From an uncultured Aliarcobacter sp. (lineage in GTDB: Bacteria; Campylobacterota; Campylobacteria; Campylobacterales; Arcobacteraceae): 64,000 nt of DNA. Positions 33,451-63,026 of this stretch are shown here, piece by piece; position 1 is the first letter of the stretch; every line of letters begins with the position of its first letter. The stretch spans positions 832,001-896,000 of the forward strand of contig CAXXLV010000002.1 in NCBI GenBank assembly GCA_963664305.2. The letters are read 5' to 3'. The position numbers were made by a program, and so were the translations under genes. The notes beneath the pieces are model-generated. The model did no database searches. It was not told where the DNA came from and saw only the letters and a list, made by a program, of their open reading frames with translations.

Positions 33451-33470
33451 CTCTACTTCTTTCTTTTTAA

Positions 33471-34821: not shown

Positions 34822-37800
34822 TTAAATTAAACCACTAACTGTGATATCTTTATCAATTTTTAAAGACACTGAATTATCACCACTATTTACGTAAGTTTTA
34901 AACCCTTCTGTATCTATATTTCCATTTGTTGACCAATTTCCACCTGTATTATCTAAACTTACTGTATCCCCTGTATCTCCAAGTATTTTTAATAAATTAT
35001 TACTACTTGTAATATCAATTACATCTTGAAATGCTATATTTGACAAATCATTTGTAGCAGATGAATTTGTCATATCTATCTCTTCTATATTATTAATATC
35101 ATTTGTGTATGTTGCAAAATCTATATCAATTCCAGCATCTAAAATTAAAGTATCAGTTCCTGTTCCTCCATCAATAACTTTGTCAGTTGAATCAAAAACT
35201 ATTTTGCTATCTAATTCATAATCCAATGAAGTATTAACTGTTCCATTTCCAACTGTAATTGTTGTTAAACCACTATCATTATCACCATCTGCATCAGTAA
35301 TATCATAAGCATATTTCATCTCAAAAGTATCGTTATAATTTATACTTCCAATTGATTCAATTCCTAATTTAAATGAACTATTATTCCCTGCTAAAAATTC
35401 AACTCCAATAATTGGGTCACCATTTGAACTTCTAACTGTATATTCTAAATCAGGAGTATAAAAGCTATCATCTGTAAGAAGAATATTTTCTCTTCCATTT
35501 GTTGTAATAACAGTGATAAATAACTCATCTCCAGATTTTTCACTTCCAAAGTTGAATAATTTTATATTTATTTCTGAAATTTCATTTTTAGTTGTAGTAA
35601 TTCCATCATAAGTAGCTATTGTATTAAAATCAAAAATTAGTTGTTGACCAGCATTCATATTATTACTATCAACACCGATATAATAATTATTTGTGTTTAC
35701 AGTATGCTCTGCATCACTATCATTTAAATCACTTAAACTATCTTCTATTAAATTATGTGCTGTTACTAAAGCATCTACAACTACTGTTGAGTTAGTAGAA
35801 GATTGAGTGAATTGGAAAATTCTATAATCTTGATTTCCACCACCTGGTAATAAAATATCACCATCAATCATATTTACAACTCCAAGAAGTGTACTTCCTT
35901 GTGTATAGTTTAATGTTGTTCCATTTGAATCAGCCATAGTAATAGTTGTTTTAAAGATTTCTGTAGTTCCATTATCAATAGTTCCTGTTACAGTGTGATT
36001 TACATTATCATAAGTGATAACTACTTTTTGACCATTTGCATAAAGTTCTGGAATTCTTGTATTTGCAACATCCCAAGAAAATAGATTTGTACCATCACCA
36101 TAAGTTGTTGATATATTACTTCCATTTGTATTTACATTTCCATTTGTAACATGTAAAGTTTGATCTCCAATTAATGGTAATAGATTTGTATTATTAATAG
36201 TTACAGAATCTGTTGCATTTGGTGATGTTGAAGTTCCATCTATAGAATGTACAGTTGATGTTAAAGTAAAATTTGTTGATGTTGTAGTTATCTTTAATCC
36301 ACTTAATTGAGCTTGAGTAAATGTCCAAGTTCCATCATTATTATTTGTACCTTGATTAAATGTAGCACCAGTTGGAACTCCCGAAATAGTAACACTACTT
36401 AATGTTTCTGAACCATCAATATCTACAAGAGAATTAGAGATATTTACATCATATGTATAATTATTACTAGAATTTGATATTAAAGAAACATCATCTATTT
36501 TTATACTATTTCCTGTAAATACCAATGCATTGTAAGTTGTATCACTTCCTATTGTTGCACTTGCAGGTATAGTGAAAGTATAAGTTCCAGCAGATAATCC
36601 ACTTGCAATCACAACTTCAGTAGCTCCATTTGCAATATTTCCTATCCATGAAACTTTACCATCAGTTCCTGTTCCAGTTATTGTAAAAGTTACACTATAA
36701 GTTGCATTATCTTGAGCTAAAGGAACTCTAACATTTTGAATCATCCATTCGCCACTCAAAGATACACTTTTATCTGTCCCACTATCAACAACTTGAGTTA
36801 ATGTTTTATCTTGTGATGCTGTAATAGATTTTCCTGAATTTCCTGGAGATTGTTTCCCATACCAATTACCATCTGTTCCATTATTAGTACTTAAAGCAGA
36901 ATCTAAATTACCATTTATAAGTATATTTGTTCCTGTTGATAAAACTTTGTTACTTAAATTTATATTTATTATTGGCGTATCAGCATTTGCATTAACTGTT
37001 ACATTTGCAGTTCCTACAATTTCTAATCCACTTGCAACATTTGTTTTAATATATGTGAAACTATCACTTCCTGAAAAATCATTAGTTGGAGTATAAATCA
37101 AATTATTTCCACTTTGTGTAACTGTTCCATTTAAACCTTGACCTAAAATTGTATATGTATATTCAGATGTTGCAGTTAATGTAACACTATTTGATTGAGC
37201 AGAAAGATTAGTATCATCTCCATCTTCATAAACAGTTAAATTTACTTTATCTACTATTGTTGTAGTTGTTGATACATTTTTTGTTGATATTCCAGTATCT
37301 GTTGTTGATGCAATTAATGTAACCGTTTCATCTGGTTCTGTTGTATTATCATTTGTTGTTTGAGTTCTTATCAATACTGATGGAGTTGTTGTTAAACTTC
37401 CTGGTATTGTTACTGTAAAATTAGAAATTGTTTGCCAAGTTAATCCATCATCAGTTGAATATTCATAATTTTGAGAATAATCCACACCCCAACTTGCAGT
37501 TCCTGCTCCATTTAAAGTAACAATGGTATCTGTTGATTTTGGTGAACTTAAACTTAATTCAAATACTGCATAATCACCTTCATTTATATAAGGTTTTGTA
37601 TCTATTACTAAAGATGGATAATCATTTATTGTTGTACTTCCAGTTGCAGTTATATTTGCCATATCTGCATTTGAACCACCATTGATAGTTGCAGTCAAAG
37701 TTAAAGATTCTGCATCATCAGCAATACTATCAGTTAAAGTTTTTACTTTTATTTCAACAGAAGTTTGTCCTTGTAATAATGTAATTTTATTACTTGTAAC

Positions 37801-40767
37801 AACTTCCCAACTCCAACTTTGTCCATCATTTGCCCATTTTTTATAATATAAAGTATTGTCATAATCAGTTGAAGAATCAACTCCACCAATATTTAAATCT
37901 AATATTGTATTTTCATTTCTTGCTTCATCTAAACTAATAACAAATACAGCTGATTTTCCTTCATCAACAGGAAGTGGATTTGACACATTTAATGTATTTC
38001 CTATATCATAAGTAATTGTATTTGCATCATCGTCATAAGCTGTTCCATCATTAACTAAAAATTGGAAATTTGCATAAGGGATTCCAACTTCATTTGTGTC
38101 TGGTTTAAATACTAAATAACCATTATCAATAGCAGTTTTTGTGATTTCTTGATCTGTACTTACTTCAGTCCAAGAAGTTCCATCAAAATATAATAATTTC
38201 CCATTTGTTGCTAAAGATGTAATTTTTACTTTTGATAAACTATCTCCATCAACATCAGTAAATCCAAAATCACTTGAAGATAAAACATGAGTAGAATTTT
38301 TACCTAAAGATACTGTTTTATCAGCACCTTCTGGAATAGTGTTTGATTCTTTGATAGTTCCAATAGCTGTACCATCTAAAATAGAGCTTCCCGCTGAGTT
38401 ATTACTCAAAGTTACAGTAAATGTATCAATATCATTATCTGCATCAACAGGTACATTTAAAATAATTGTTTTATTTGTTTCACCTGGTAAAAAAGTAATA
38501 GTTCCACTTAATTGATTTGTACCTGCTGTAAAATCTCCACTTTCTGCACTATTTCCTGTTTCAATAGTAGCTGCATAATCTACTGTTTGATTAGCTTCTG
38601 CATCACCTATTCTTGAAACTACAAATGTAATAGTATTACTTGCACCTTCATATGCTTCTGCATCTGAAATTGAAAATTTAGTTCTATCATCATCTACAGA
38701 ACTATCACTATCATCTCCATCTGTCCCTGTTCCATTATCTGTGATTGTCCCTATTGCTGTATCTGAATCAGTAATGTAAGAAGAAGTAGCATTTGCAGAA
38801 AGAGTAAAAGTTTCGGCACCTTCGTAAATAGAATCACTAGTAGTTGGGATATTTACATTAAAGCTTGTTATTCCTGCTGGCAATGTAAATTTACCATTTA
38901 CATCTACACTTAGTGTTTGTGTTACATTTAATGAATCTACATATGTTACTGTCCAACTTGTTTTTGTTTGACTAAAATCATTATTCTCTGCACTTCCCAA
39001 ACTTGTGCTTAATGTTATCTCTTCTGCGTATTCACTTGCATTTGACAATGTCCCTACGAATACTAGTGTACTTCCTTCTTCTATTGTTGCATCACTCAAT
39101 GTTAATACTGGTTTATCATTATCCACAGAACTATCACTATCATCTCCATCTGTCCCTGTTCCATTATCTGTGATTGTCCCTATTGCTGTATCTGAATCAG
39201 TAATGTAAGAAGAAGTAGCATTAGCAGAAAGAGTAAAAGTTTCGGCACCTTCGTAAATAGAATCACTAGTAGTTGGAATATTTACATTAAAGCTTGTTAT
39301 TCCTGCTGGCAGTGTAAATTTACCATTTACATCTACACTTAATGTTTGTGTTACATTTAATGAATCTACATATGTTACTGTCCAACTTGTTTTTGTTTGA
39401 CTAAAATCATTACTCTCTGCACTTCCCAAACTTGTGCTTAATGTTATCTCTTCTGCGTATTCACTTGCATTTGACAATGTACCTACGAATACTATTGTAC
39501 TTCCCTCTTCCATTGTCGCATCACTCAATGTTAATACTGGTTTATCATTATCTACAGAATTATCACTATCATCTCCATCACTTCCACTTCCATTATCTGT
39601 GATTGTCCCTATTGCTGTATCTGAATCAGTAATGTAAGAAGAAGTAGCATTAGCAGAAAGAGTAAAAGTTTCGGCACCTTCGTAAATAGAATCACTAGTA
39701 GTTGGAATATTTACATTAAAGCTTGTTATTCCTGCTGGCAGTGTAAATTTACCATTTACATCTACACTTAATGTTTGTGTTACATTTAATGAATCTACAT
39801 ATGTTACTGTCCAACTTGTTTTTGTTTGACTAAAATCATTACTCTCTGCACTTCCCAAACTTGTGCTTAATGTTATCTCTTCTGCGTATTCACTTGCATT
39901 TGACAATGTACCTTCGAATACTATTGTACTTCCTTCTTCTATTGTTGCATCACTCAATGTTAATACTGGTTTATCATCATCTACAATTGTTCCAACACCT
40001 GAAACTGTTGAATTCATAAACTCTGTTTTCCCATTTAATCTAAATGTTTCATTTCCTTCAACATGCGTGTCATTAGTTGTCCCAATTTCAACTTTTAATG
40101 ATGTTTCACCAGTTGGAACTGTATAACTACCATCACTATTTTTATTAATTACATTACCTTTGGAATCTTTAACAATTATATTTGGATTTATATCAGTAGA
40201 ATCTGCTGTTTCATTTGTAGTCGGGAAAAAGTTAACTTTAAATGGTTTATTAGAAGCTTTATCAAAATTTACAGTAAATATTGCTGTATTTCCTTCTGTT
40301 ACTGTAACATTTGATATAGACATAGTTGTTTTTATAACTTCTTCAACTTGTGTTGGTTTAGTCTCTGTTCTAGGCTTTTCATCTTTATATTCATAAATAG
40401 TTTCTCTTAAATCCGCTTCAACATTACCTTCTAAGTTGTTTTTTTCAACAATCCTTGATTGTGTAGCATCAGACATAGGATTTCTTAAACTAGCATTTAC
40501 ATCACCATCTAAATCATTTTTTCTAACAATTCTAACTTTTAATGCATCATTATTACTTGTTGTACTAATTGTTGAATCATTTTGGGAAGCTTGATTATCA
40601 ATTTGCGTTTTTTGTTCATCATTTGTTTTTTCTAACGATGTTATATTTACATTATTTTCTAATTCATCAATCTGTGTTAAAAATTGTTGAATTTCCATTA
40701 AAATTTCATTATTTGGCATGTTTTGAGCTATTGTTTTATTTGATAATTCTTCTTGATTCTCAAGCAT
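34822..40767 (-). CDS. large T1SS-secreted adhesin with Calx-beta / Ig-like repeats
   Basis: Thr/Asp/Asn-rich, EGAETFTL...AIGTITDN repeats, C-terminal DGGTGTDTL and NIEEIDM...LKILGD secretion-type tail; adjacent to T1SS genes. Confidence 0.88.
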   Translation of the reverse strand: MLENQEELSNKTIAQNMPNNEILMEIQQFLTQIDELENNVNITSLEKTNDEQKTQIDNQASQNDSTISTTSNNDALKVRIVRKNDLDGDVNASLRNPMSDATQSRIVEKNNLEGNVEADLRETIYEYKDEKPRTETKPTQVEEVIKTTMSISNVTVTEGNTAIFTVNFDKASNKPFKVNFFPTTNETADSTDINPNIIVKDSKGNVINKNSDGSYTVPTGETSLKVEIGTTNDTHVEGNETFRLNGKTEFMNSTVSGVGTIVDDDKPVLTLSDATIEEGSTIVFEGTLSNASEYAEEITLSTSLGSAESNDFSQTKTSWTVTYVDSLNVTQTLSVDVNGKFTLPAGITSFNVNIPTTSDSIYEGAETFTLSANATSSYITDSDTAIGTITDNGSGSDGDDSDNSVDNDKPVLTLSDATMEEGSTIVFVGTLSNASEYAEEITLSTSLGSAESNDFSQTKTSWTVTYVDSLNVTQTLSVDVNGKFTLPAGITSFNVNIPTTSDSIYEGAETFTLSANATSSYITDSDTAIGTITDNGTGTDGDDSDSSVDNDKPVLTLSDATIEEGSTLVFVGTLSNASEYAEEITLSTSLGSAENNDFSQTKTSWTVTYVDSLNVTQTLSVDVNGKFTLPAGITSFNVNIPTTSDSIYEGAETFTLSANATSSYITDSDTAIGTITDNGTGTDGDDSDSSVDDDRTKFSISDAEAYEGASNTITFVVSRIGDAEANQTVDYAATIETGNSAESGDFTAGTNQLSGTITFLPGETNKTIILNVPVDADNDIDTFTVTLSNNSAGSSILDGTAIGTIKESNTIPEGADKTVSLGKNSTHVLSSSDFGFTDVDGDSLSKVKITSLATNGKLLYFDGTSWTEVSTDQEITKTAIDNGYLVFKPDTNEVGIPYANFQFLVNDGTAYDDDANTITYDIGNTLNVSNPLPVDEGKSAVFVISLDEARNENTILDLNIGGVDSSTDYDNTLYYKKWANDGQSWSWEVVTSNKITLLQGQTSVEIKVKTLTDSIADDAESLTLTATINGGSNADMANITATGSTTINDYPSLVIDTKPYINEGDYAVFELSLSSPKSTDTIVTLNGAGTASWGVDYSQNYEYSTDDGLTWQTISNFTVTIPGSLTTTPSVLIRTQTTNDNTTEPDETVTLIASTTDTGISTKNVSTTTTIVDKVNLTVYEDGDDTNLSAQSNSVTLTATSEYTYTILGQGLNGTVTQSGNNLIYTPTNDFSGSDSFTYIKTNVASGLEIVGTANVTVNANADTPIININLSNKVLSTGTNILINGNLDSALSTNNGTDGNWYGKQSPGNSGKSITASQDKTLTQVVDSGTDKSVSLSGEWMIQNVRVPLAQDNATYSVTFTITGTGTDGKVSWIGNIANGATEVVIASGLSAGTYTFTIPASATIGSDTTYNALVFTGNSIKIDDVSLISNSSNNYTYDVNISNSLVDIDGSETLSSVTISGVPTGATFNQGTNNNDGTWTFTQAQLSGLKITTTSTNFTLTSTVHSIDGTSTSPNATDSVTINNTNLLPLIGDQTLHVTNGNVNTNGSNISTTYGDGTNLFSWDVANTRIPELYANGQKVVITYDNVNHTVTGTIDNGTTEIFKTTITMADSNGTTLNYTQGSTLLGVVNMIDGDILLPGGGNQDYRIFQFTQSSTNSTVVVDALVTAHNLIEDSLSDLNDSDAEHTVNTNNYYIGVDSNNMNAGQQLIFDFNTIATYDGITTTKNEISEINIKLFNFGSEKSGDELFITVITTNGRENILLTDDSFYTPDLEYTVRSSNGDPIIGVEFLAGNNSSFKLGIESIGSINYNDTFEMKYAYDITDADGDNDSGLTTITVGNGTVNTSLDYELDSKIVFDSTDKVIDGGTGTDTLILDAGIDIDFATYTNDINNIEEIDMTNSSATNDLSNIAFQDVIDITSSNNLLKILGDTGDTVSLDNTGGNWSTNGNIDTEGFKTYVNSGDNSVSLKIDKDITVSGLI
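38689..39975 (-). repeat. three near-identical 429-bp (143-aa) tandem repeats in the adhesin
   Basis: DKPVLTLSDAT...GDDSD unit three times; shadow ORFs recur at 39005, 39434, 39863 (period 429). Confidence 0.95.
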
Positions 40768-41101: not shown

Positions 41102-41148
41102 ATGGCGACCCCAGCAAGATTCGAACTTGCGTGTTCTGGAGGAAATCC
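41102..41148 (-). repeat. att site: displaced 3' part of the tRNA gene
   Basis: ATGGCGACCCCAGCAAGATTCGAACTTGCGTGTTCTGGAGGAAATCC identical to 62950-62996. Confidence 0.96.
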
Positions 41149-41270: not shown

Positions 41271-41291
41271 AAGGTGGGAAATAAGTGGGAA
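41271..41291 (+). repeat. putative integrase arm-binding site overlapping the int start codon
   Basis: AAGGTGGGAAATAAGTGGGAA identical to 62879-62899. Confidence 0.7.
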
Positions 41292-42418
41292 ATATTGAAG
41301 CTAAAACAATCAATTATTCTAAAAGATTTAATACCAAATTTAATGGTGTGTTTTATAGAGAATCTATAACAAATGATAAACTAGATAAAACATATTATAT
41401 CAGATACAAAGATAAAGACAATAAAGATAAAGAAATAAAAATAGGCAAATATTCTGAGGGATTTAGAGAAAATTATTGTAATCAATTAAGAAATGAAATT
41501 ATAACAAAACAAAGAATTGGTGAAGAGCCTCCTGCTGCTGCAAGAAATAAAAGAAAAAAAATATTATCAATAGAAACTATTTCAGAAAACTATTTTTCTG
41601 AAAGAAAAGAGGGACAAAATAAAGGGACAGATAAATCAAATTTTAAAAACTATATTCTACCCTACTTTAAGAATCTTGATTTTGAAAACATATCTAAAGA
41701 TGATATACAAGTATTTACAAATCAATTAAAGAAAACAAAATCATTAATAAAAAAAGACCTTATTTCAGATAAAACAATAAACAATATTTTAAACTTTTTA
41801 AAAGCTCTGATTAAATACGCATTTAGAAATGACTATATCAAAAATGATTTTTCAAAATATATTCAATTATTAGAGATAGATAATGCTCGAGAAAGATTTT
41901 TAACTAAAGATGAGATAAAACAGTTATTTGAATATTCGAAAGATGATGAGACCCTTTATTTACTCTTTAAACTAGCATTAAATACTGGAGGAAGATTAGC
42001 AACACTATTAAATATCCATAAAAAAGATATTGATTTTACACATGATTTAATAACACTAAAAGACTTCAAAAATAATAGTACATATAAAGCTTTTTTAACT
42101 GATGATTTAAAAGAGCTTCTAGAGAAAAGAGTAAATTCTTTAAAACCAAATGATATGCTTTTTACATCAAATCCAGAAAGAAGATTAAGAGCTAAACTAG
42201 ATGAACTTTTTAACAAAGATATCAATGACAACGATAGAAAAAATAAAATTGTATTTCACTCTTTAAGACATACTTTTGCGAGTCATTTAGCTATTAATGG
42301 AACACCTATTTTCACAATTCAAAAACTTATGAATCATAAAGATATAAGAATGACTTTGAGATATGCTAAATTAAGTCCTGATAGTGGTAGAGAAGCTGTT
42401 AAGAACTTAAGATTATAA
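41285..42418 (+). CDS. tyrosine recombinase (integrase)
   Basis: TGGR, FHSLRHTFAS, MNHKD, RYA catalytic set; adjacent to att. Confidence 0.95.
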   Translation: MGNIEAKTINYSKRFNTKFNGVFYRESITNDKLDKTYYIRYKDKDNKDKEIKIGKYSEGFRENYCNQLRNEIITKQRIGEEPPAAARNKRKKILSIETISENYFSERKEGQNKGTDKSNFKNYILPYFKNLDFENISKDDIQVFTNQLKKTKSLIKKDLISDKTINNILNFLKALIKYAFRNDYIKNDFSKYIQLLEIDNARERFLTKDEIKQLFEYSKDDETLYLLFKLALNTGGRLATLLNIHKKDIDFTHDLITLKDFKNNSTYKAFLTDDLKELLEKRVNSLKPNDMLFTSNPERRLRAKLDELFNKDINDNDRKNKIVFHSLRHTFASHLAINGTPIFTIQKLMNHKDIRMTLRYAKLSPDSGREAVKNLRL

Positions 42419-42468
42419 ACTATAAAAAAGAATAAATTTAAAATTTATCTTTTAAATTAATTATTCTT

Positions 42469-43461
42469 TTACAAAACTTCTTCTAAATCTTTAAATTCTT
42501 TCAAAATATATTTTGAGCTATCAATATTATAAGATTTTGATGAATTATTATATTCCAAAAGTATAATTTTTCTTAACTCAGGGAATAACTCATCATCTAA
42601 AGGTCTAAAATCATATTCATCTCCATCCAGTAAACAATACTTATTATTATTTATTTCTAGAATTCTTGATTTTTCATTTAATGAAAAGAATTTATTCTTA
42701 TCACTACATATCATTGTCACATTATTTGAAAGTAATATTTCTTTCAGATTTTTCGAAATATTAAAATCATATGAATAAGTTAAATGGTAATTTTTTATTT
42801 CCGATATATCTCTTTGGCTAGGTAAATATTTTGTATAATCATAAAAATTTAATTCTGGAAAAATAGAAAAAATATTAATCTTTTCACTATCACTAGGTAT
42901 AACTATTGAATATTCATCTACATATGATTTTAATATTTTTTTTATATCACTATGTAACTCAAATTTATATTCATCTTTCTCCCAAGGAATGTCAGAAAGT
43001 CCATTTAATCTAACGGCAGGTTCTAATGAATTATTTTTTGCATGAATTAATAATTTTAGAATATCAAATACTAAAATATTCATAAAATTTTCTTTATCTT
43101 CAAAAAACCATTGAGTGTTATTTTTTCTATAATTATTATAATTTGTTGGTGCATTATAAAAACAAAAATCAATACACGTACCAGCATATTTACATGTATT
43201 AATAATATTAGAACTTTTATGAGGGGCAAGGTATAACATTCCAATTAAATATTTTTCATAAAGATTAGAAGGATTACCATATTTAAAATCTTTATATAAT
43301 CTTCCATATCTATCAAAATAACCTAATACATGATTATTAATATTTTTATTTTTAGTAAAATAGTTTTTCTTTTTAGAAAAATTCTTTGGTAAAGATAATT
43401 TTGGAAAAATTTCTTTTTTTAATTTAGAGAATTCTTCTCTTCTAATCTCTCTAATCCCCAT
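42469..43461 (-). CDS. phage GP88-like protein with CX5CX3C motif
   Basis: LYLAP...TCKYAGTCIDFC, PAVRLNGLSDIPWE, FPELNFYDYTK, NYHLTYS, DGDEYDFRPLD match my recollection of the GP88-like phage family. Confidence 0.65.
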   Translation of the reverse strand: MGIREIRREEFSKLKKEIFPKLSLPKNFSKKKNYFTKNKNINNHVLGYFDRYGRLYKDFKYGNPSNLYEKYLIGMLYLAPHKSSNIINTCKYAGTCIDFCFYNAPTNYNNYRKNNTQWFFEDKENFMNILVFDILKLLIHAKNNSLEPAVRLNGLSDIPWEKDEYKFELHSDIKKILKSYVDEYSIVIPSDSEKINIFSIFPELNFYDYTKYLPSQRDISEIKNYHLTYSYDFNISKNLKEILLSNNVTMICSDKNKFFSLNEKSRILEINNNKYCLLDGDEYDFRPLDDELFPELRKIILLEYNNSSKSYNIDSSKYILKEFKDLEEVL

Positions 43462-45349
43462 TTTTTATTATCCTTTTTATTATATATAATTCTAACTCTT
43501 TATTTTCACAATACACATAACAACCTTTCATTCCTCTAGTCATTAATGTTCTATATGTATTTTTGATTATGTTATCAATTTTAGTTTCTATTTCAACTAC
43601 TTTTTGAGTGTTTTTAGTTTTTTTGGCATCTTTTAATTGACCTTTATAGCCTTTTAAAGATTGGTCAGTTTTTGCTCTTTTATCTGGATTTGTAACTATT
43701 TTTCTATTTTCATAAGTTAAATCTTCTCCAATAATTACACCGATATAATCTACTTCTAATCCTTGACAAGTATGAATACAACCAATTTGTTCAACTGATT
43801 GTGGGCTAATTATCCAAAGACTTCCATCAATGGATAAATTCCATTGCATCTCAAATCCATATTTAGGAAGGATTATATCCATAGCCTTTGAATCTTTTTT
43901 ACTTTCCCAATTCCAACAATATCCTGCAACTAATCTAGCTTTATTATTAATTTTATTTTTCTCATAGATAGCATCTTTTAAATCATTTGGATTATCAAAT
44001 ACTTTAAAATCATATTCATTTAAATCTATAGTAGTGTTTGCAGTTTCTCTAATTTGTAATAGATTATCTAACCATGCTAAATAACCATCAGAGCCATTAC
44101 ATCTAAATTGAGATGTTAATTCCACTACTTCAACATTAGCATCATAATATTCAGCCCATTTTTTAATTTCAGATTCTTCACCAATATCATTAAAAGTTAC
44201 AGTTTGGTCTTCATCTAAAAAGAATATTACTGATTTAGAAGAGTAAATAGCTTCTTTGATTTGATTTTCACCAAGATTTCCATAAAGACCAGATTTTTCA
44301 TTCATTCTATGTGCTTCATCAATGATTAAACAATCATAAGAATTTTCTTCACAATCTACAAATGAGCCAGAGCCAGTAAATAGATTTGAGATTTCTGTTT
44401 TTTTCAAAGTTCCAGTTAGTTTTGATTCGTATACAGCTCTTGGTGCAGAGTTTTTACTAACATATCTTGAATTAAATCCTTTTTTTGTAAGTTCTACTAA
44501 AAGGTTAATTGCAATTACTGATTTTCCAGTCCCTGGTCCTCCATGAACAATTAAAACATTTTTATTTGTAGTATCTGATTTTCTAGCAAGTTCTAATGCA
44601 GATTCATAAACAATTTTTTGATTATCAATCATTGTAAATTCTTCATTACCTTTTATCATTGAAGCCATTGAATCAGCTAATGATTTAGAAGGTCTAATTT
44701 CACTTTTATCAATTTTATTCATCACATCATTTACATCACCATAAACAATATGTGAAGATATAAATTCAATTAGATTACTTCGTTCACCTTTTATAAATAC
44801 GGGAGCTTTAAATAAATAGTTCTTATAAAAATCATTTTTTAATACATCATCATTTGAATAATTATGTAAATATGCACAAGGAACTAACGAAATATTTTCA
44901 TCATTAACTACTTTGTTAAATCCTTCAAGCAATTTTACATATGACCAAGCTTGATATGATGGATGAGTAGTTTCTCTTAAGCCTCCACCTAAAATAGTTT
45001 TAATAACACCATCTTTTGAAGTAAGCTTTGATTCACTCCATTGTTTTAATTCAATGATAACTACTTTATCATTTCTATTTTCATCTTGACCAGATACAAT
45101 TAAATCTATTCTATTTCCAGTTCTTGGAATATTATATTCAATAGAGATATTTGAATCATTTGGTATCTTATCACAATATAAAACTTTAGCCATTTCATTT
45201 AAAGAGTTTTTCCATGAAATATATTCATTTTTTGGAGTATTTCTACCAAGATTAACTTCAACTGCATTTGCAATAATATCTTCAATTTCAATATCATTTA
45301 CTAATACATCTTCTAAAAATTCTTTTTTTGTTTTTTTATAAATAATCAT
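43451..45349 (-). CDS. DUF2075 (Schlafen group 3-like) nuclease-helicase
   Basis: IEY..RIDL..IIELKQW nuclease-like N-terminus; GGPGTGKS, DEAHR, QFRC, CIHTCQGLE, YRTLMTRG. Confidence 0.88.
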   Translation of the reverse strand: MIIYKKTKKEFLEDVLVNDIEIEDIIANAVEVNLGRNTPKNEYISWKNSLNEMAKVLYCDKIPNDSNISIEYNIPRTGNRIDLIVSGQDENRNDKVVIIELKQWSESKLTSKDGVIKTILGGGLRETTHPSYQAWSYVKLLEGFNKVVNDENISLVPCAYLHNYSNDDVLKNDFYKNYLFKAPVFIKGERSNLIEFISSHIVYGDVNDVMNKIDKSEIRPSKSLADSMASMIKGNEEFTMIDNQKIVYESALELARKSDTTNKNVLIVHGGPGTGKSVIAINLLVELTKKGFNSRYVSKNSAPRAVYESKLTGTLKKTEISNLFTGSGSFVDCEENSYDCLIIDEAHRMNEKSGLYGNLGENQIKEAIYSSKSVIFFLDEDQTVTFNDIGEESEIKKWAEYYDANVEVVELTSQFRCNGSDGYLAWLDNLLQIRETANTTIDLNEYDFKVFDNPNDLKDAIYEKNKINNKARLVAGYCWNWESKKDSKAMDIILPKYGFEMQWNLSIDGSLWIISPQSVEQIGCIHTCQGLEVDYIGVIIGEDLTYENRKIVTNPDKRAKTDQSLKGYKGQLKDAKKTKNTQKVVEIETKIDNIIKNTYRTLMTRGMKGCYVYCENKELELYIIKRIIKNGD

Positions 45350-47022
45350 TTTATTAATTCTTTTAATCTTTTTGTAACATTATCATTAACAGCATAAACT
45401 AATAAACCTTTTTTGGCTCTAGTCATTAATGTAATATAAATATTCCTAATCTCTATTTCTGTAGGTTTATCTTTGTCTTTATAATTTTGAGGTAAATAAA
45501 TAAATTTACCATTTTGATAATCTATGTCAGAACCTAAAATTAGACCAATATAATCATATTCTATCCCTTGTGCAGTGTAAATACAAGCAACTTCATTTAA
45601 TGAGTTATCTAAATAAAAACTTTTATAATTTTTTGTTTTTAATAAATTTTTATTATTCCATGCTTTAGACCAAGCATCTTTTTCAATATAAATATCTAAA
45701 GGTAAGGATCCATCACTTTTAGGTTCATTCCATTCCCAAGTAAATCCTGCAATAAGTTTTTTATTTGTATAGTTATTAAGCTCATTTTCTAAAATATTTA
45801 TATTATCAAATATTGAAACTGAAAATTCATTTGTATTTTTATAAAGTGTGGGATTTATAAATAGATTATAAACCCAATCTTCGTAGAAGTTTTGTCCTTT
45901 ACTTCTTAATTGAAATCTTAATTTCTCATAAATGATGGTTTTATTAATTAATTGCTTTTTTATATCATCTACATTAATACCTTTTGCAGATATTTTTTGA
46001 AAATCATCAATTAGTAAAATTAAATTTTTACATTTATTTGATAATTCAACTAGTTCTTGTTTTGTTAATCTATGTGCTTCATCAACAATAATAAAATCGT
46101 ATAAAGTATTGTTTTGAGTAATTGAATATGAATGAAAAATAGGAAATTTATTATGTTTTGAAGTATGGTATAAAAATGAAGAAGGTATAGTTAAAACTAC
46201 ATTTTTTTTTAATTTAATTAATTCTACTAAAAGTTTATATCCTACAACTGTTTTACCACTTCCTGCTCTTCCATCCAGAATAAAAATATTATTTTGTCTA
46301 TTTTTATTTTGTAATACTTTTGAATAAAAAACTCTTTGCTTATCTATAATATTTATACTAAAGTCATCATTCATTAAATTGTTTACATAATCAATAATTG
46401 ATGGAGTTGGTATTAATTGCTTTTCAATCAGACATTTTAAAAGACCTTTTTCTTTACTTTTTTCTATTTCAAATGAAACTAAATTGGCATATAGAAAATC
46501 TCTAAATTTATTTTTTGTAATTTTCGAAAATGAATATTCAGAAAATTTTTTACAATTTAATAATAAATTATTCTGAATTTCTGTATCTATATTATGTAAA
46601 TAAGAACAATACAAAGAACTTATACCTTTACTTCCATAAAAAAAATCTATTAATGATTGGCTATATTCTTTTGCTTGTAATGTAGGATGAATATATTCTT
46701 TTAAATCATGATTAGGAATTATAAAATCTTTTATTGATTCTCTAATAGTCCATTGTTTTAATTCAATTACAATAGAACAATTTTTACCAACTAATAAAAC
46801 ATCAATTCTTTTATCTATAAATTTTAAATGATATTCAATAAATATGTATAAATTAGTTTTATTTTCTAGAAGTGAAAGAATTTTTGCCAATTCAGGTAAT
46901 GATTTTTTCCAAGATTTAAATTCTTCTGTATTCTTATTCTTGAAATTTTCTAAAATATTAAATATAGATCCACTCTCTATATCTTTTAAAAAGATTTCGA
47001 TTGTATTTGAATAATAAGCCAC
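45346..47022 (-). CDS. second, divergent DUF2075 nuclease-helicase
   Basis: IEY..RIDV..VIELKQW; GRAGSGKT, DEAHRL, QLRS, CIYTAQGIEYD, LMTRAKKG. Confidence 0.85.
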   Translation of the reverse strand: MAYYSNTIEIFLKDIESGSIFNILENFKNKNTEEFKSWKKSLPELAKILSLLENKTNLYIFIEYHLKFIDKRIDVLLVGKNCSIVIELKQWTIRESIKDFIIPNHDLKEYIHPTLQAKEYSQSLIDFFYGSKGISSLYCSYLHNIDTEIQNNLLLNCKKFSEYSFSKITKNKFRDFLYANLVSFEIEKSKEKGLLKCLIEKQLIPTPSIIDYVNNLMNDDFSINIIDKQRVFYSKVLQNKNRQNNIFILDGRAGSGKTVVGYKLLVELIKLKKNVVLTIPSSFLYHTSKHNKFPIFHSYSITQNNTLYDFIIVDEAHRLTKQELVELSNKCKNLILLIDDFQKISAKGINVDDIKKQLINKTIIYEKLRFQLRSKGQNFYEDWVYNLFINPTLYKNTNEFSVSIFDNINILENELNNYTNKKLIAGFTWEWNEPKSDGSLPLDIYIEKDAWSKAWNNKNLLKTKNYKSFYLDNSLNEVACIYTAQGIEYDYIGLILGSDIDYQNGKFIYLPQNYKDKDKPTEIEIRNIYITLMTRAKKGLLVYAVNDNVTKRLKELIK

Positions 47023-47367
47023 TTATAACTCCGAATATTTTTTTGCATTACCTTTAGACTTTTCAACTGGATATTTTTTTTCAAATTTTTCTAATTTATC
47101 ATAAATTGCTTCTTCTAAATTAATATCAAATTTCATACATAATCTTAAAAGATATATTGAAATATCTGCAATTTCTTCTTTTAAATGTTCATGTTTTTTT
47201 TCATCAAGGTTATATGATTGTTCTTCAGTAAGCCATTGAAATATTTCTAATAATTCTGCAGATTCTTTTGCTAACGCCATTGAGAGATTTTTAGGAGAAT
47301 GAAATTGATTCCAATCTCGTTCATCTGATATTTTTTTTAATAGAGTTTGTATATTTTTTGTATTCAA
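47023..47367 (-). CDS. MazG-like nucleotide pyrophosphohydrolase (dCTP pyrophosphatase type)
   Basis: ERDWNQFHSPKNL...ESAELLEIFQW...EEIADI...KYP. Confidence 0.92.
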   Translation of the reverse strand: MNTKNIQTLLKKISDERDWNQFHSPKNLSMALAKESAELLEIFQWLTEEQSYNLDEKKHEHLKEEIADISIYLLRLCMKFDINLEEAIYDKLEKFEKKYPVEKSKGNAKKYSEL

Positions 47368-47382
47368 AAAAAACCTTTTATA

Positions 47383-47424
47383 AAATATAAAATATTGTAC
47401 TAAATATAATATCTTATTGTCAAC
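47383..47424 (-). promoter_or_regulatory. promoter of the MazG-DUF2075-GP88 operon, near-copy of the TA promoter
   Basis: TTGACA-N18-TACAAT on minus strand; 38/42 identical to 48021-48062. Confidence 0.7.
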
Positions 47425-47479: not shown

Positions 47480-47764
47480 CTAGAATCTATCTTTTAGATT
47501 CTTATAAATTTTATCTTTTTCCCTTTTTCCAACACTCAATACTAAAACAACTATCTCTTCATCCTTAACTTGATAAGCAAGTCTATATCCAACATTTCTT
47601 AGTTTTATTTTATAAACATTTTCATATCCACTTAGTTTATCTTTTTCTACTTTTGGATTTTCTAATCTCTCTTCTAATTTCTTTTTAAATTGTTCTTTTA
47701 TTGTTGAGCCTAATTTACTCCACTCTTTTAAAGCTTGAGGTTTAAATTCAAGATTATAAGTCAT
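47480..47764 (-). CDS. RelE/StbE-family toxin
   Basis: ALKEWSKL...QFKKKLEERLENP...YKIKLRNVGYRLAYQV...VGKRE. Confidence 0.93.
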   Translation of the reverse strand: MTYNLEFKPQALKEWSKLGSTIKEQFKKKLEERLENPKVEKDKLSGYENVYKIKLRNVGYRLAYQVKDEEIVVLVLSVGKREKDKIYKNLKDRF

Positions 47765-48005
47765 CTAAACTTACTTTAACTGGTTTTTCACCATCATTTA
47801 AAGCTTTTCCTACTTCTAATGACAAATGATAATCATCTATAATATCCATCATTTTTTCATATAATTTACTTGGAACTAGATATGCACTAGGGATATTATG
47901 ATTTAATATTGCTATAACTTCATTATCAGCTTCATTGAGTAATTGTGTAGGAGATTTTTTAAGTTCTGTTATACTCGCACTATAATTTGCTAAAATTGGT
48001 TGCAT
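47754..48005 (-). CDS. StbD / Phd-YefM-family antitoxin
   Basis: ILANYSASITELKKSP...AILNHNIPSAYLVP...VKVSLDDL; overlaps toxin start. Confidence 0.92.
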   Translation of the reverse strand: MQPILANYSASITELKKSPTQLLNEADNEVIAILNHNIPSAYLVPSKLYEKMMDIIDDYHLSLEVGKALNDGEKPVKVSLDDL

Positions 48006-48329: not shown

Positions 48330-48440
48330 TCATTACTCCTTCTAAAATTTAACATATTTATTAATTAAAGATGCTATGTATCATTGTACAAAATTATTTA
48401 TTATTTTTAATTAAAAAAATAATAAATTCATATATTTTTA

Positions 48441-48829
48441 TTACACATGATTTAATAACACTAAAAGACTTCAAAAATAATAGTACATATAAAGCTTTTT
48501 TAACTGATGATTTAAAAGAAATTCTAGAAAAAAGAGTAGATTCTTTGAAACCAAATGATATGCTTTTTACATCAAATCCAGAAAGAAGATTAAGAGCAAA
48601 ACTTGATGAACTATTTAACAAAGATATCAATGAAAACGATAGAAAAAATAAAATTGTATTTCACTCTTTAAGACATACTTTTGCAAGTCATTTAGCTATC
48701 AATGGAACACCTATCTTTACAATTCAAAAGCTTATGAATCATAAAGATATAAGAATGACTTTGAGATATGCTAAATTAAGTCCTGATAGTGGGAGAGAAG
48801 CTGTTAAGAATTTATCTTTTGATTTATAA
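48441..48829 (+). pseudogene. 3' fragment of a sibling integrase
   Basis: 48441-48810 is roughly 95% identical to 42036-42405; lacks N-terminus and first catalytic Arg. Confidence 0.9.
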
Positions 48830-48888
48830 ACTAAATATTAATTTATAATTTAGTATACTCATTAATATTAACATATAGGGCATATAAT

Positions 48889-51800
48889 ATGGGAATTTTT
48901 GATAGTCTTATTTTACCTTACACTCTAGGGATATTTGTAAATAAATCAAGTGATAAATTAAATTCAATATTTAAAAATAATGAAAATCTTTTAAAAAAAC
49001 TTTTTGTAAAATCTTTTATACAAACAATAGAAAACTCTAAAGTAGGATATTTCTCTACTAATAGTATATTCGATAATTTAATTAAAAAGATTGAGAAGAA
49101 TGATGAAAAATTATTTTTTTTAATAGAAAATGAATCATTAAGTAAAAATGAAAATTTTCTTAATTTAATTAAAAATCCGGAGTTTTCAAATACTTTTATA
49201 GAAAAATTATTTAAAGAATATTCGTTAGATACAAAAAATATAGATAAAGATAGTCTTTTAGGAAATTCTTTAAAAAACTTATTAAATAATTATGAAATAA
49301 TATTTTTCCAGAATTTATCGGTAGATACTTCTCTGTCTTTAATTTTTAAAGAAGTATTAAAAATAAAAAATTTGTCTCAAACTTTAAATTCCATAGCAGA
49401 AAAGATTACAGAATTTGATGAAGTAAGAAAAATACTAACAAAAGATTATTTAATTAATAATATAGATTATAGTAAAAGTAGAGAAGTATATGACTCTTAT
49501 TTACTGAGAAAATATGAATTTTTAGAACTAGCAGGATTTTCACCAAAAATATCTGGAAAAGATATTTTTATGAAATTATCGGATGTTTTCATCCCTTTAA
49601 TGATAGAGGGTAATGATTCATCAGAAATAAGATTAACTTCAAAAGAAGCTATCGAAAATATTTTAAATTCAAAACATAAGTCTTTAGTTATTTTAGGAGA
49701 TCCTGGTTCTGGAAAATCAACTTTATTAAAATATATAGCAAGCTTTATTTCTTCTAATCGAAGTTTAGATTGGTTATATCAAGATACTATGCCTTTATTA
49801 ATAAAAGTTTCAGAATATGCTGAATGGTATAAAACTTATAACAAAAATTTATTTGAATATATTAAAGATTTAGACTCTCAGTATAAAAATATATTTATTG
49901 AAAATTTAGAGTGTTCAAATTTATTAATTTTATTAGATGGATTAGATGAAGTAACTGATAGTTCAATAAGAAATAAAATTGTTAATAATATTATTGATTT
50001 AAAAGCAAGATATCCTTTTAATAGATATATAGTGACTTCAAGAATTATTGGTTATAGAGAATCAAGTTTAAGTGGACATTTTCAAGAATCAAGATTACAA
50101 GATTTTTCAGAAAATGATATTAAACAATTTTCTAATCAATGGTATAAATCAATAGCTCAAAGTGAAATATCATCAAAATCTGATATTACAGAATTTGAAA
50201 TTAGTGAAATCAATACAAAGTATAATAATTTGGCAAAAGAATTATTTTCATCTATATCAAGAAATAGTTCCGTTATTAAATTTGCTAAAAATCCATTGTT
50301 AATGACAATTATTGTAATGATATTTTTTCAATCAAAAAAATTACCTAATAAAAGAGTAGAGTTATATGAAATTGCAACTGAAACATTTTTAGATAATTGG
50401 GTAAGAGTTCGATTTGAAGAAAATTCAAAGTTTAAAGATAAAGGAATTATGCTTGAGATTCTCCCTCATATTGCTTTTGAAATACATTCAGGTAATGATA
50501 AAGGACTTATACATGAAGAATTATTTAAAAAAGAATTTATAGAACTTTATCGAGAAATTAACGGAGTGGATTTAAATCTGGCAAAAAAAGAGTTTATTGA
50601 ATTTAAAGAATTTTTAGAAAAATATACAGGATTTTTTTATCGAAAAGATTTAGATGGTAGTTTATATGGATTTGTTCATTTAACATTTGAAGAATATCTA
50701 GCAGCTTTAGAATTAAAATCTAAGTGGGATTTAAAAACCTTAAAATTGGAAGATTATGTTTTTGATTCACGTTGGAGTGAAGTTATTAGACTTGCAATAG
50801 CTAATTTAAAAATATCTAATAGAGCAATTTCTGGTAGAGTAAAAGCAACAGAATTTATTAAAGACATCTTAAAAGTTAATGATTCTTATCCTAAACTTCA
50901 TAGATTATTTCAATTAGTATTATTGATTTTTATTGATGATGTTGAAATTAATAATGAATTAAAAGAAGAAATAATAACAAAATTCTTTTTTTTACTTGAA
51001 GAGCATACAGAAATTTCTTTATTAGATACATTAACAAAGATTTTTGGTGAAATAAATTATAGTATATATAATAATGATTTTTTTGAAAGAATTAAAGAAA
51101 TATTAAAATCATCAAAAAATAAAAACTTGTTGACAAATATTTTTTATTTATTAATTAACAATACAGATAAAAAAGAAATAGAAATATTTATTTATGAAAT
51201 ATTAAATGAGTATGGTAATCAAAAATATTTCTTTGAAGCAATATACAATATAGATTATAAACTTTTAAAAAAAGTTAAACTTGAAAAAGCTTTTTTAATT
51301 AAAAATTGGGTAGAACTTATTAATAAAAAAGAATTCTCAGAAAGTTATGTTGAAAGTATTACTCCTAAGCTCTCTAAATTTTTATTAAGTAATAAATCTA
51401 ATTCTTCTTCTATAATTAAAACTACTATTATAGACTTCTTTATTGAAATATTTAATTTAATTAAAAATTCAGATTATGAAAATATTTTCTATAAATTGAT
51501 AATGAGAGAAATGCATGCTTTTGGAAGAAATAATATTAAACTAACTATATTAGATAAAATTAATAATAAACCTATAAAAAAGAAATTAAAAGAAATGCTA
51601 ACACTTGCTAAAAAAATTGAAGAAAAAGAAATAGACCATACTTCTTTTAGAATGGGAGCTTACTTTAAAAATTATTTACTCATAAAAAGTGATGAAAAAT
51701 CAACAATAACAGATTTAAGAAATTTAGAAAAAATATATATTGATAAAAATTTATTAATAGATATTAAAAACAACACAGCAAAATATCCTGAAGAATTTAT

Positions 51801-52224
51801 AGAAGCTGTTTATTTTATTTCTGGTTATGAGCAAGAAGATAATATAGATATATTTATAAAATGTGCTGAAAAAGGAGAAATTTTTCAATTTTTTGACTGG
51901 GAAGAGTTTTCGTTAAGAAATTTAAGAAAAGACCCAAAAAATTTATCAAAATTTATATTGTTACAAGTTAGAAATAGAGAGAAAAGATTATTTACAGATG
52001 AAAGCAATCTAAAAAAAATTTTAAATAATTATTATGAAGATAAAAAATTCTTTAATAATTTAGATGCAACAGTTCAATTTATAATTCTGAAATTATTAAA
52101 TATAGACATTGATAAAAATATTACGGATAAATGTTTTGAATTGATGAGTACAATGAATAAAAAAGACCAAGAAATAATGTATAATCATTTATTTGAGCAT
52201 TTAAATCCATACTATCTTTTATAA
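48889..52224 (+). CDS. NACHT/STAND NTPase (bacterial NLR-like)
   Basis: GDPGSGKS, LILLDGLDEV, VTSR, NPLL, FVHLTFEEYLAA; long helical C-terminus. Confidence 0.9.
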   Translation: MGIFDSLILPYTLGIFVNKSSDKLNSIFKNNENLLKKLFVKSFIQTIENSKVGYFSTNSIFDNLIKKIEKNDEKLFFLIENESLSKNENFLNLIKNPEFSNTFIEKLFKEYSLDTKNIDKDSLLGNSLKNLLNNYEIIFFQNLSVDTSLSLIFKEVLKIKNLSQTLNSIAEKITEFDEVRKILTKDYLINNIDYSKSREVYDSYLLRKYEFLELAGFSPKISGKDIFMKLSDVFIPLMIEGNDSSEIRLTSKEAIENILNSKHKSLVILGDPGSGKSTLLKYIASFISSNRSLDWLYQDTMPLLIKVSEYAEWYKTYNKNLFEYIKDLDSQYKNIFIENLECSNLLILLDGLDEVTDSSIRNKIVNNIIDLKARYPFNRYIVTSRIIGYRESSLSGHFQESRLQDFSENDIKQFSNQWYKSIAQSEISSKSDITEFEISEINTKYNNLAKELFSSISRNSSVIKFAKNPLLMTIIVMIFFQSKKLPNKRVELYEIATETFLDNWVRVRFEENSKFKDKGIMLEILPHIAFEIHSGNDKGLIHEELFKKEFIELYREINGVDLNLAKKEFIEFKEFLEKYTGFFYRKDLDGSLYGFVHLTFEEYLAALELKSKWDLKTLKLEDYVFDSRWSEVIRLAIANLKISNRAISGRVKATEFIKDILKVNDSYPKLHRLFQLVLLIFIDDVEINNELKEEIITKFFFLLEEHTEISLLDTLTKIFGEINYSIYNNDFFERIKEILKSSKNKNLLTNIFYLLINNTDKKEIEIFIYEILNEYGNQKYFFEAIYNIDYKLLKKVKLEKAFLIKNWVELINKKEFSESYVESITPKLSKFLLSNKSNSSSIIKTTIIDFFIEIFNLIKNSDYENIFYKLIMREMHAFGRNNIKLTILDKINNKPIKKKLKEMLTLAKKIEEKEIDHTSFRMGAYFKNYLLIKSDEKSTITDLRNLEKIYIDKNLLIDIKNNTAKYPEEFIEAVYFISGYEQEDNIDIFIKCAEKGEIFQFFDWEEFSLRNLRKDPKNLSKFILLQVRNREKRLFTDESNLKKILNNYYEDKKFFNNLDATVQFIILKLLNIDIDKNITDKCFELMSTMNKKDQEIMYNHLFEHLNPYYLL

Positions 52225-52570
52225 AGAGACTGTTCAGAGTTTTGTGTCAGTAACTGATAGTTCCTAGAATTTTAGCATAGTTAATCTTACTAATCCTAAT
52301 TTGCTCCAAAAAGTACAGGTTGTTGAACTTTCGTATATTAGTAACAATTTATCCATTATTTTCTGTGTCTTGCATTTTACTGACATATCAATATTATAAA
52401 TAGAAACATCATAATAGTTTTTATTTTTAGTATATATAGTAAATTTATCTAAAATTAAATTTATATCAGAACTATTAACTACTTTTTCCTCAAGAAGTTT
52501 ATTATTACTCTTTAATACAGCTTCTCAAAGTTTTTCAATCAGTTTTTTTTAATCATTAATATCCCTCATA

Positions 52571-62899: not shown

Positions 62900-62950
62900 G
62901 TAGTAAATTTTAATAAAACTTAAAAAGCTTTAGAAAGCCCTTTAAATCAA

Positions 62951-63026
62951 TGGCGACCCCAGCAAGATTCGAACTTGCGTGTTCTGGAGGAAATCCAGAC
63001 GTCCTTGGCCTCTAGACGACAGGGTC
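62951..63026 (-). tRNA. tRNA-Glu (TTC) with atypical anticodon loop
   Basis: 76-nt cloverleaf: GACCCTG/TGGGGTC acceptor, GTCT/GGAC D stem, TCTGG-ATTTCCT-CCAGA anticodon arm, GCAAG-TTCGAAT-CTTGC T arm, encoded CCA. Confidence 0.85.

Follow-up and report, generated by a model that had tools for sequence, protein, structure and literature searches.

The window analysed here, the whole stretch of 64,000 nucleotides (nt) from an uncultured Aliarcobacter sp., carries on its minus strand an operon of four genes that encode, in the order of transcription, a MazG-like protein, two DUF2075 nuclease-helicases (A and B), and a protein of the GP88 family (Table 1; DUF2075 is Pfam PF09848, with the current name SLFN-g3_helicase). 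The open reading frames (ORFs) and all three junctions are as given in the original prediction, a model's reading of the letters and ORFs that proposed a new anti-phage system of four tightly coupled genes: the junctions are a 0-bp gap (MazG/A), a 4-bp ATGA overlap (A/B), and an 11-bp overlap (B/GP88). The four genes are real and coupled, and they keep their catalytic motifs. The locus is not a fixed four-part machine; its core consists of the MazG-like protein, a DCTPP1-type pyrophosphatase, and B, and both A and GP88 are optional. The promoter-like site upstream of the operon is weak by itself, the scan having found 51 such sites vs 68.6 expected by chance.

Table 1. Features of the operon and of the island around it, with positions in the window
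Feature	Position	Strand	Basis
MazG-like gene, DCTPP1 type, 114 amino acids (aa), first of operon	47023-47367	-	Pfam PF12643 E 7.5e-15
DUF2075-A nuclease-helicase (NERD-type PD-(D/E)xK + SF1 helicase), 558 aa, short, diverged, optional	45346-47022	-	PF09848 E 4.9e-45, NERD E 4.4e-5
DUF2075-B, Nhi-like nuclease-helicase, 632 aa, conserved core with MazG	43451-45349	-	PF09848 E 1.8e-102
Island-clade GP88, 330 aa, CX5CX3C, predicted divergent radical-SAM (S-adenosylmethionine) enzyme, exchangeable slot	42469-43461	-	Pfam PF17338 E 1.7e-21
Promoter-like site, 11/12 consensus, just upstream of MazG gene	47394-47423	-	sequence scan
Left attachment repeat, 47 bp, copy of tRNA-Glu 3' part	41102-41148		repeat search
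Right attachment repeat inside tRNA-Glu (tRNA 62951-63026)	62950-62996		repeat search
Tyrosine integrase of island, convergent with GP88	41285-42418	+	PF00589 E 1.4e-29
Second copy of integrase 3' part; closes block holding operon and toxin-antitoxin (TA) pair	48432-48852	+	92% to 42027-42447
Phd/YefM antitoxin + ParE/RelE toxin pair, travels with block	47480-48005	-	Pfam
NACHT gene, 1111 aa	48889-52224		Pfam

Both helicases combine an N-terminal PD-(D/E)xK nuclease domain with a PF09848 helicase, as does Nhi (SERP2475), a single nuclease-helicase that limits phage DNA accumulation and that is described, in the available part of the source, as one self-sufficient gene (bioRxiv 10.1101/776245). 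The catalytic residues of A and B are intact: D...ELKQW, Walker A, and DEAHR are found in each, beside the C-terminal helicase motifs, such that the predicted retention of Walker A/B and of an N-terminal D..ExK motif holds for the two proteins, as does their predicted high divergence (28% identity). A lacks several inserts that B has. Pfam NERD matches A only, yet D82, E100, and K102 of B are the same in all 104 relatives aligned. Of 7,996 candidates that were scored against A, 7 clusters reach ≥50% identity, and A is situated on its own long branch of the helicase tree; a free tree also separates it from a short paralogue (C) of G224 and G521, a single clade of A and C not being rejected by the approximately unbiased (AU) test (p-AU 0.21). 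Concerning B, at least 523 relatives were confirmed among 598 GTDB stretches scanned. In a survey of the best 80 of these, from other phyla, MazG lies directly upstream of B in 60 of the 73 loci with at least 500 nt of flank; the pair of MazG and B is a widespread core. In a sample of 401 genomes from the order, only G000, G224, and G521 have B-type genes, and at high identity such genes occur in 2 of 184 genomes of the window's family.

Other arrangements of DUF2075 genes were also encountered. A second type with an N-terminal GIY-YIG nuclease (L034:3770-5791, L036:7683-9760, L035:7811-9583) has a partner of the same MazG family at two of its three loci, and twin operons of a long B and a short C exist in two other families (L315:8272-11726 in G521, L208:7299-11696 in G224). 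The C proteins of G521 and G224 are 57% alike, and HNH-like and HIT genes are situated near the G521 operon.

For the MazG-like protein, a sequence search of the PDB returned the pyrophosphatase 4qgp as best match (E 8.6e-22), followed by dCTP pyrophosphatase 1 (6sqw), to which residues 5-114 align at E 6.3e-21 with the acidic metal-binding motifs in register, as in a relative of DCTPP1/RS21-C6. To judge from its sequence, it is likely to be a nucleotide-cleaning enzyme. DCTPP1 hydrolyses dCTP and modified dCTPs, a substrate range that refers to the eukaryotic enzyme only. NCBIfam holds no GP88 model, and none of its models scored above cut-off for any of the four genes. A second, stand-alone MazG-like gene (60% identical) lies inside a hydrogenase-maturation cluster of the same genome (G000:C2:352820-353176).

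Two protein searches placed 8 clusters of the close GP88 clade far above the rest. The full-context count comprises six island-type GP88 loci (the window, G144, L038, L039, L046, and G224), the five further island-type clusters P0002-P0005 and P0122 standing outside it. In all six, a DUF2075 gene adjoins GP88 and MazG is found in the same block, within flanks that differ among the loci (integrase; MobF relaxase element; UvrD; HNH-HIT; housekeeping genes). The window has the order MazG-A-B-GP88; G144, from another genus and with an adjoining relaxase, has MazG-B-GP88, as have the metagenome contigs L038 and L039; and in G224, from another family, the order is MazG-C-GP88-B, C being a 515-aa paralogue and GP88 being flanked on each side by a DUF2075 gene of another B lineage. 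In run X3, a single contig of 8,060 nt carries all four genes, a seventh copy about 95% alike; the other fully read loci depart from the four-gene set of the window. GP88 co-occurs with its partner genes repeatedly, contrary to the outcome that would have refuted the original prediction. Among the GP88 loci collected (the best 80 of 287 metagenome and the best 80 of 565 viral ones, 94 of these 160 with at least 2 kb upstream), DUF2075 or MazG genes are present only at L038, L039, and L046, and at 0 of the 157 others. In the 401 genomes of the order, island-type GP88 is found in G000 and G224 only, both of which were in the search model.

In a quick tree of 62 GP88 proteins, 10 island, 8 chromosomal, and 44 phage-type members are each separated by a branch (Shimodaira-Hasegawa-like approximate likelihood ratio, SH-aLRT, 99, 99, and 96); the tree is unrooted, has a long branch for G224, and was flagged for compositional bias. 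As it has no root, a phage origin is suggested by the far more numerous phage members, and the island GP88 is probably phage-derived. The nearest named relatives of the window's GP88 are those of Aliarcobacter butzleri and Arcobacter arenosus.

The composition of the block varies. A is absent at four of the six fully read loci, and a fifth (G224) has a different short paralogue; the contigs of runs X4 and X6 join MazG directly to B, without A, at depths of only 2.2 and 5.8. Runs X7 and X8 (one clone, one study) contain MazG-A-B-TA and the integrase, the 1,063 nt of GP88 being replaced by 474 other bases. Together with the survey of B loci from outside the phylum, in which GP88 was found at 0 of 80 (69 with at least 1.5 kb downstream), these variants speak against the four-gene system as originally proposed. 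X5 offers only a 32-nt hint of another GP88 allele, and X10 and X11 carry the integrase and have no long piece over the operon, which makes them uninformative as to its absence.

B and GP88 have diverged to very different degrees. At the window, G144, and L046, B is 84-85% identical, whereas GP88 is 34-37% identical; L038 has a B of only 60% identity, yet the closest GP88 (46%); and the pair L038/L039 shows 81% for B and 37% for GP88. In AU tests of 9 chosen topologies (six rows), the GP88 data reject three B-type topologies (p-AU 1.2e-5 to 1.7e-5) and the B data reject six GP88-type topologies (p-AU at most 0.011). The conflict between the GP88 and B trees points to allele exchange, and from these comparisons the GP88 gene appears to have been swapped between related loci. 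In addition, the GP88 gene of G224 has a G+C content at third codon positions (GC3) of 0.146 vs 0.24-0.26, as would fit a separate insertion. Specificity subunits show this kind of pattern, in which a conserved motor is combined with a fast-changing partner that is exchanged.

We lean towards a functional tie between GP88 and the helicase. A serious, if somewhat unlikely, alternative is that GP88 is independent cargo, perhaps a one-gene defence, in a hot slot behind B, which shares the promoter and not the mechanism, the operon being a stack of Nhi-like genes and passengers. Several observations weigh against the tie and for such a slot. In X7/X8 the slot holds an unrelated stretch of 474 nt; downstream of B, the loci surveyed elsewhere have various genes and in no case GP88; duplicated integrase ends flank the block; and phage GP88 genes have no fixed neighbour, the commonest neighbour family occurring in 12 of 143 loci. 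At L046, GP88 is accompanied by a frameshifted B and by MazG on the other strand, and the integrase island of G521 has two DUF2075 genes and, over 19 kb, no MazG gene and no GP88. One clade comprises five of the six B genes (support 99), so the loci are not independent and at most two associations are indicated. GP88 has a lower G+C content than B at every locus, such that the GC3 signal of G224 is partly compositional. Finally, a recombination slot for passengers would give the same pattern of conserved motor and exchanged partner, and recombination against the conserved end of B could hold a passenger gene in place without a functional tie. The passenger explanation is itself opposed by the observation that island GP88 was not seen away from DUF2075 genes (6/6 loci; 2/2 in the 401 genomes), and by G224, where DUF2075 genes of another lineage flank it on both sides.

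Beside these genes, an Endonuclease I (endA-like) gene flanks four GP88 loci (L016:11531-12196, L038:347-2098, L039:1940-2680, L046:3758-5448) and an HNH-HIT fusion flanks two; together they may mark a chromosomal hot spot or further partners.

With a Pfam score of 77.6 bits (gathering cut-off 24.4), the window's protein is a clear GP88 member that keeps the invariant residues, and the motifs named in the original prediction (C90-x5-C96-x3-C100, RLNGLSD, FYDYTK, NYHLTYS, DGD) are all present. Island GP88s in general keep all family-invariant residues, including the three cysteines, N153, S156, D157, D208, Y209, and K211, and have lost the AGRG and the C-terminal KG-AK-D-SGFV motifs of the phage copies. 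C90, C96, and C100 are invariant in 104 of 104 GP88 sequences; in the model of the window's protein (predicted local distance difference test, pLDDT, 82.7; residues 1-66 mostly uncertain) they lie on a loop following the first core strand (71-76). Their spacing is non-canonical, namely CX5CX3C in the island copies, CX6CX3C in 109 of 157 other loci, and CX5 in 12 of 157.

The radical-SAM-like reading of GP88, put forward with the original prediction, gains support from fold matches and from a profile comparison. When Foldseek candidates for the window model were aligned with VIA-align, QueE (Z 5.5) and SuiB (Z 5.3) led within a range of 5.2-5.5. A compact phage-type relative, P0022, was modelled (pLDDT 93.9) and searched over 48,161 chains: the first 11 matches are all radical-SAM enzymes, as are 21 of the 24 matches listed at Z of at least 5.0, among them NifB (Z 6.6, root-mean-square deviation 4.2, 158 aligned), QueE (6.4), spore photoproduct lyase (SPL; 5.7), and viperin (5.5); for some of the listed chains, we take the radical-SAM family assignment as given. 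The GP88 profile scores 28.7 over 130 columns against SPL-like proteins, above all of 30 column shuffles (E 3e-4), in an alignment that is collinear for the cysteine loop, the SD motif, and the xTK motif. On the opposite side, this score is only 24.4 when the GP88 alignment is window-first; the Z values are middling (5.4-6.6 for the top 11 of P0022, below the tool's mark of 8); the cysteine spacing departs from the usual radical-SAM spacing CX3CX2C; and Foldseek against the PDB gave nothing at E 0.001 for either the window or the phage GP88 model, the matches being weak barrels only. The GP88 profile found nothing below E 0.24 among PDB sequences, and a search of the ESM Atlas with GP88 found only viral unnamed and DUF7227 clusters (0.90-0.91). 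The profile match to DUF5131 lends the radical-SAM assignment no help, as its score (22.7) is below the shuffle maximum (23.0). On balance, GP88 is probably a radical-SAM enzyme.

The collinearity with SPL-like proteins is also what one would expect if GP88 repaired a lesion as SPL does, with MazG cleaning the pool, and if the operon served DNA damage or element maintenance and not defence; in agreement with this, several genera of the family have a stable chromosomal GP88 gene that belongs to a clade of its own. We nevertheless hold such a function to be very unlikely, as the patchy presence of the B-type genes in the family, the island location, the McrBC, HNH, NACHT, and TA neighbours, and the fast divergence with exchange are all unlike repair genes.

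The chromosomal GP88 clade (283-301 aa; L017-L027, L003-L015) deserves mention by itself. Five genera of the window's family have it as a near-core gene (18 of 150 genomes; L017-L027 are from G015, G081, G069, G003, G030, G009, G067, G079, G034, G097, and G048), and in the same survey it was not found in the window's genus. In 8 genomes the gene is directly behind a selD or selD-like gene and in one behind selD-selA-selB, whereas selD was not seen in the fetched flanks of 9 others; this might indicate a link to selenium metabolism or plain synteny. SPL-like genes (PF20903) are present in the majority of the genomes sampled from several families (f5, 6/6; f7, 5/6; f8, 6/6) and in 0/5 of the window's family (121 genomes of the phylum), such that a replacement of PF20903 by the chromosomal GP88 is conceivable there, the sample being tiny.

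The presence of viperin and of QueE-type nucleotide enzymes among the fold matches, and of a dCTP-pyrophosphatase relative as partner, would also suit a system in which GP88 makes a chain terminator or alarm nucleotide that the MazG-like protein destroys or senses and that switches on the nuclease-helicases. HIT or HNH-HIT genes adjoin three related loci (L038, L046, G521), and a pyrophosphatase-like protein is the sensor of Kongming, according to the available part of that report (PMC13434031). This is quite unlikely, however: MazG and B occur without GP88 in most loci, so the job of MazG should be independent of a GP88 product; a maker of small molecules would not obviously need allele exchange; and viperin, at Z 5.5, ties with many other radical-SAM enzymes.

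Concerning the phage members, about 4,000 stored viral stretches are estimated to match GP88. The gene starts within the first 1.8 kb in 7 (6 phages) of 23 matching phage records, and is gene 2 or 3 in two T7-like phages that were opened; in one of the two it precedes the RNA polymerase and has a DNA methylase nearby. The anti-restriction gene of T7 lies in that early region. Several T7-like phages of Pelagibacter and Mesorhizobium (L327, L328) have GP88 as one of their first genes; in them it is a candidate first-entry counter-defence enzyme. No conserved partner of phage GP88 was found in the 143 loci; C5 methylases are neighbours in 5 of them.

These methylases, together with the one near GP88 in phage HTVC134P, could hint at a restriction-modification logic, by which GP88 would mark host DNA, the nuclease-helicases would cut unmarked DNA, and MazG would remove recycled modified nucleotides; exchange of specificity genes is likewise typical of restriction-modification systems. 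With B intact in the absence of GP88 in many genomes and in X7/X8, no self-mark seems to be needed, and we judge this highly improbable. To the idea that GP88 was captured as an inactive form of a phage counter-defence protein and would trap the partner of the phage protein or trigger the helicase, we give the slimmest chance: phage GP88 does sit in first-entering regions and two of its motifs are lost in the island copies, yet these copies keep every family-invariant residue, cysteines included, and form an old clade apart from the 44 phage-type proteins sampled. The decoy idea offered with the original prediction is weakened accordingly.

We return to the reading of the locus as a modular anti-phage operon, in which a Campylobacterota lineage added to the core of MazG and B an exchangeable, probably phage-derived GP88 as specificity module, and put its probability at about 40%; a defence role of the operon as such is likely. 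If it shares the activity of DCTPP1, the pyrophosphatase would hydrolyse dCTP or modified dCTPs and thereby leave less for phage replication. B, with A as a second motor-nuclease, would unwind and cut phage replication intermediates, by analogy with Nhi as far as the available part of its description goes (10.1101/776245). GP88 may bind a [4Fe-4S] cluster through C90/C96/C100, and may recognise or mark a phage-specific nucleic acid or nucleotide, which would widen the target range of the nuclease-helicase; these are the weakest steps. A swap of the GP88 allele would then change the range of phages stopped. That a domesticated first-entry radical-SAM enzyme of phages serves as exchangeable specificity subunit, its radical chemistry on phage DNA or nucleotides deciding on destruction, is a rather doubtful extension of this scheme. 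If true, it would give the large, uncharacterised GP88 family its first function, and, if GP88 steers the nuclease-helicase, radical chemistry would be added as a means to discriminate self from phage, in addition to viperins. Here one GP88 clade is linked to a defined class of partner, and natural variants (GP88 present or missing, A present or missing, and at least 2 types of GP88 allele) make the function of GP88 directly testable.

The operon is part of an island of 21.9 kb, integrated at tRNA-Glu and bounded by a 100% identical 47-bp direct repeat; this repeat and the Pfam matches confirm the predicted setting as cargo beside a TA pair and a NACHT gene. A VirB6-like gene is also found in the island. 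The 3' part of the integrase is duplicated, with 92% identity over 422 bp, and the four genes and the TA pair are situated between the copies, which suggests that the block entered by recombination between related elements; in each of the runs X3, X7, and X8, one contig carries both the TA pair and the operon. These bracketing duplicates inside the tRNA-Glu island look like a nested accretion of cargo blocks. The NACHT protein and a 527-aa protein without clear family (48889-54154) are candidate separate defence genes of the island, and just to its left (34822-40767) a 1981-aa repeat protein accompanies a type I secretion operon (30012-34799) and, judged from ORFs alone, appears to be an adhesin-like secreted protein. 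Rfam found no family in positions 40000-64000 of the window, and a plasmid collection gave 1 weak match among 72,556 records.

Searches of the open literature, supplements and subscription papers aside, found no description of a MazG-DUF2075 pair, of twin DUF2075 genes, or of a GP88 function. The word MazG is absent from the texts of the Nhi (10.1101/776245) and Nhi-like (10.1101/2022.05.11.491447) papers, and the available parts of PMC12839542 and PMC10121019 contain nothing on the pairing. The MazG-DUF2075 pair is common and apparently undescribed. As far as their available parts show, other sources place DUF2075 proteins beside modification-dependent nucleases (PMC6765204) and in CRISPR loci (10.1101/2025.09.30.679098). 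PADLOC-DB 2.0.0 (2023) has no multi-gene system that fits all components, and no model in it matches the MazG-like or the GP88 protein. The predicted relation to defence proteins is seen in partial matches of the helicases to Nhi, AbiO, and PDC-S41 (E 1e-14 to 1e-17).

Among known systems, Nhi and Nhi-like proteins are closest: according to the available parts of the sources, they have the same domain order of N-terminal PD-(D/E)xK and DUF2075/PF09848 SF1 helicase (bioRxiv 10.1101/2022.05.11.491447) and a setting in defence islands. The matches to the PADLOC Nhi model (A, E 3.4e-17; B, E 6e-14) are partial, of 50-60 bits, and to a model without stated cut-off. Nhi is a single gene, whereas here two paralogues, a DCTPP1-type gene, and GP88 form one operon; because of this difference, the locus would work like Nhi but is not filed as Nhi. 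AbiO and the candidate PDC-S41 give partial profile matches to both helicases (E 2e-17 to 8e-15) and are equally single-gene models. With Pfam GP88 (PF17338)/phrog_1617, the window's protein matches above cut-off and shares the invariant residues; however, GP88 stands alone in phages, whereas island GP88 is longer and forms a separate clade tied to DUF2075 genes. The radical-SAM enzymes QueE, NifB, SPL, and viperin give the best fold matches, and the three cysteines lie on a loop that follows strand 1 of what is modelled as a partial barrel, but the unusual spacing, Z values below 8, and the lack of a sequence match to a solved structure set GP88 apart, and no nearest subfamily can be named. 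Prokaryotic viperins are an example of defence built on a radical-SAM enzyme; by its sequence GP88 does not belong to the viperins, neither Pfam nor PADLOC giving such a match. Kongming, in the available part of its description, resembles the locus in drawing defence from nucleotide-handling enzymes with a pyrophosphatase-type partner (PMC13434031), whereas the locus lacks a deaminase, HAM1, or SIR2 protein and has a nuclease-helicase as effector. An Nhi-like operon with a GP88 gene for a predicted radical-SAM enzyme is likely undescribed, its nuclease-helicase part being of known type; the tie of a probable radical-SAM enzyme to an Nhi-like effector is unusual, the GP88-linked form being rare and the core common.

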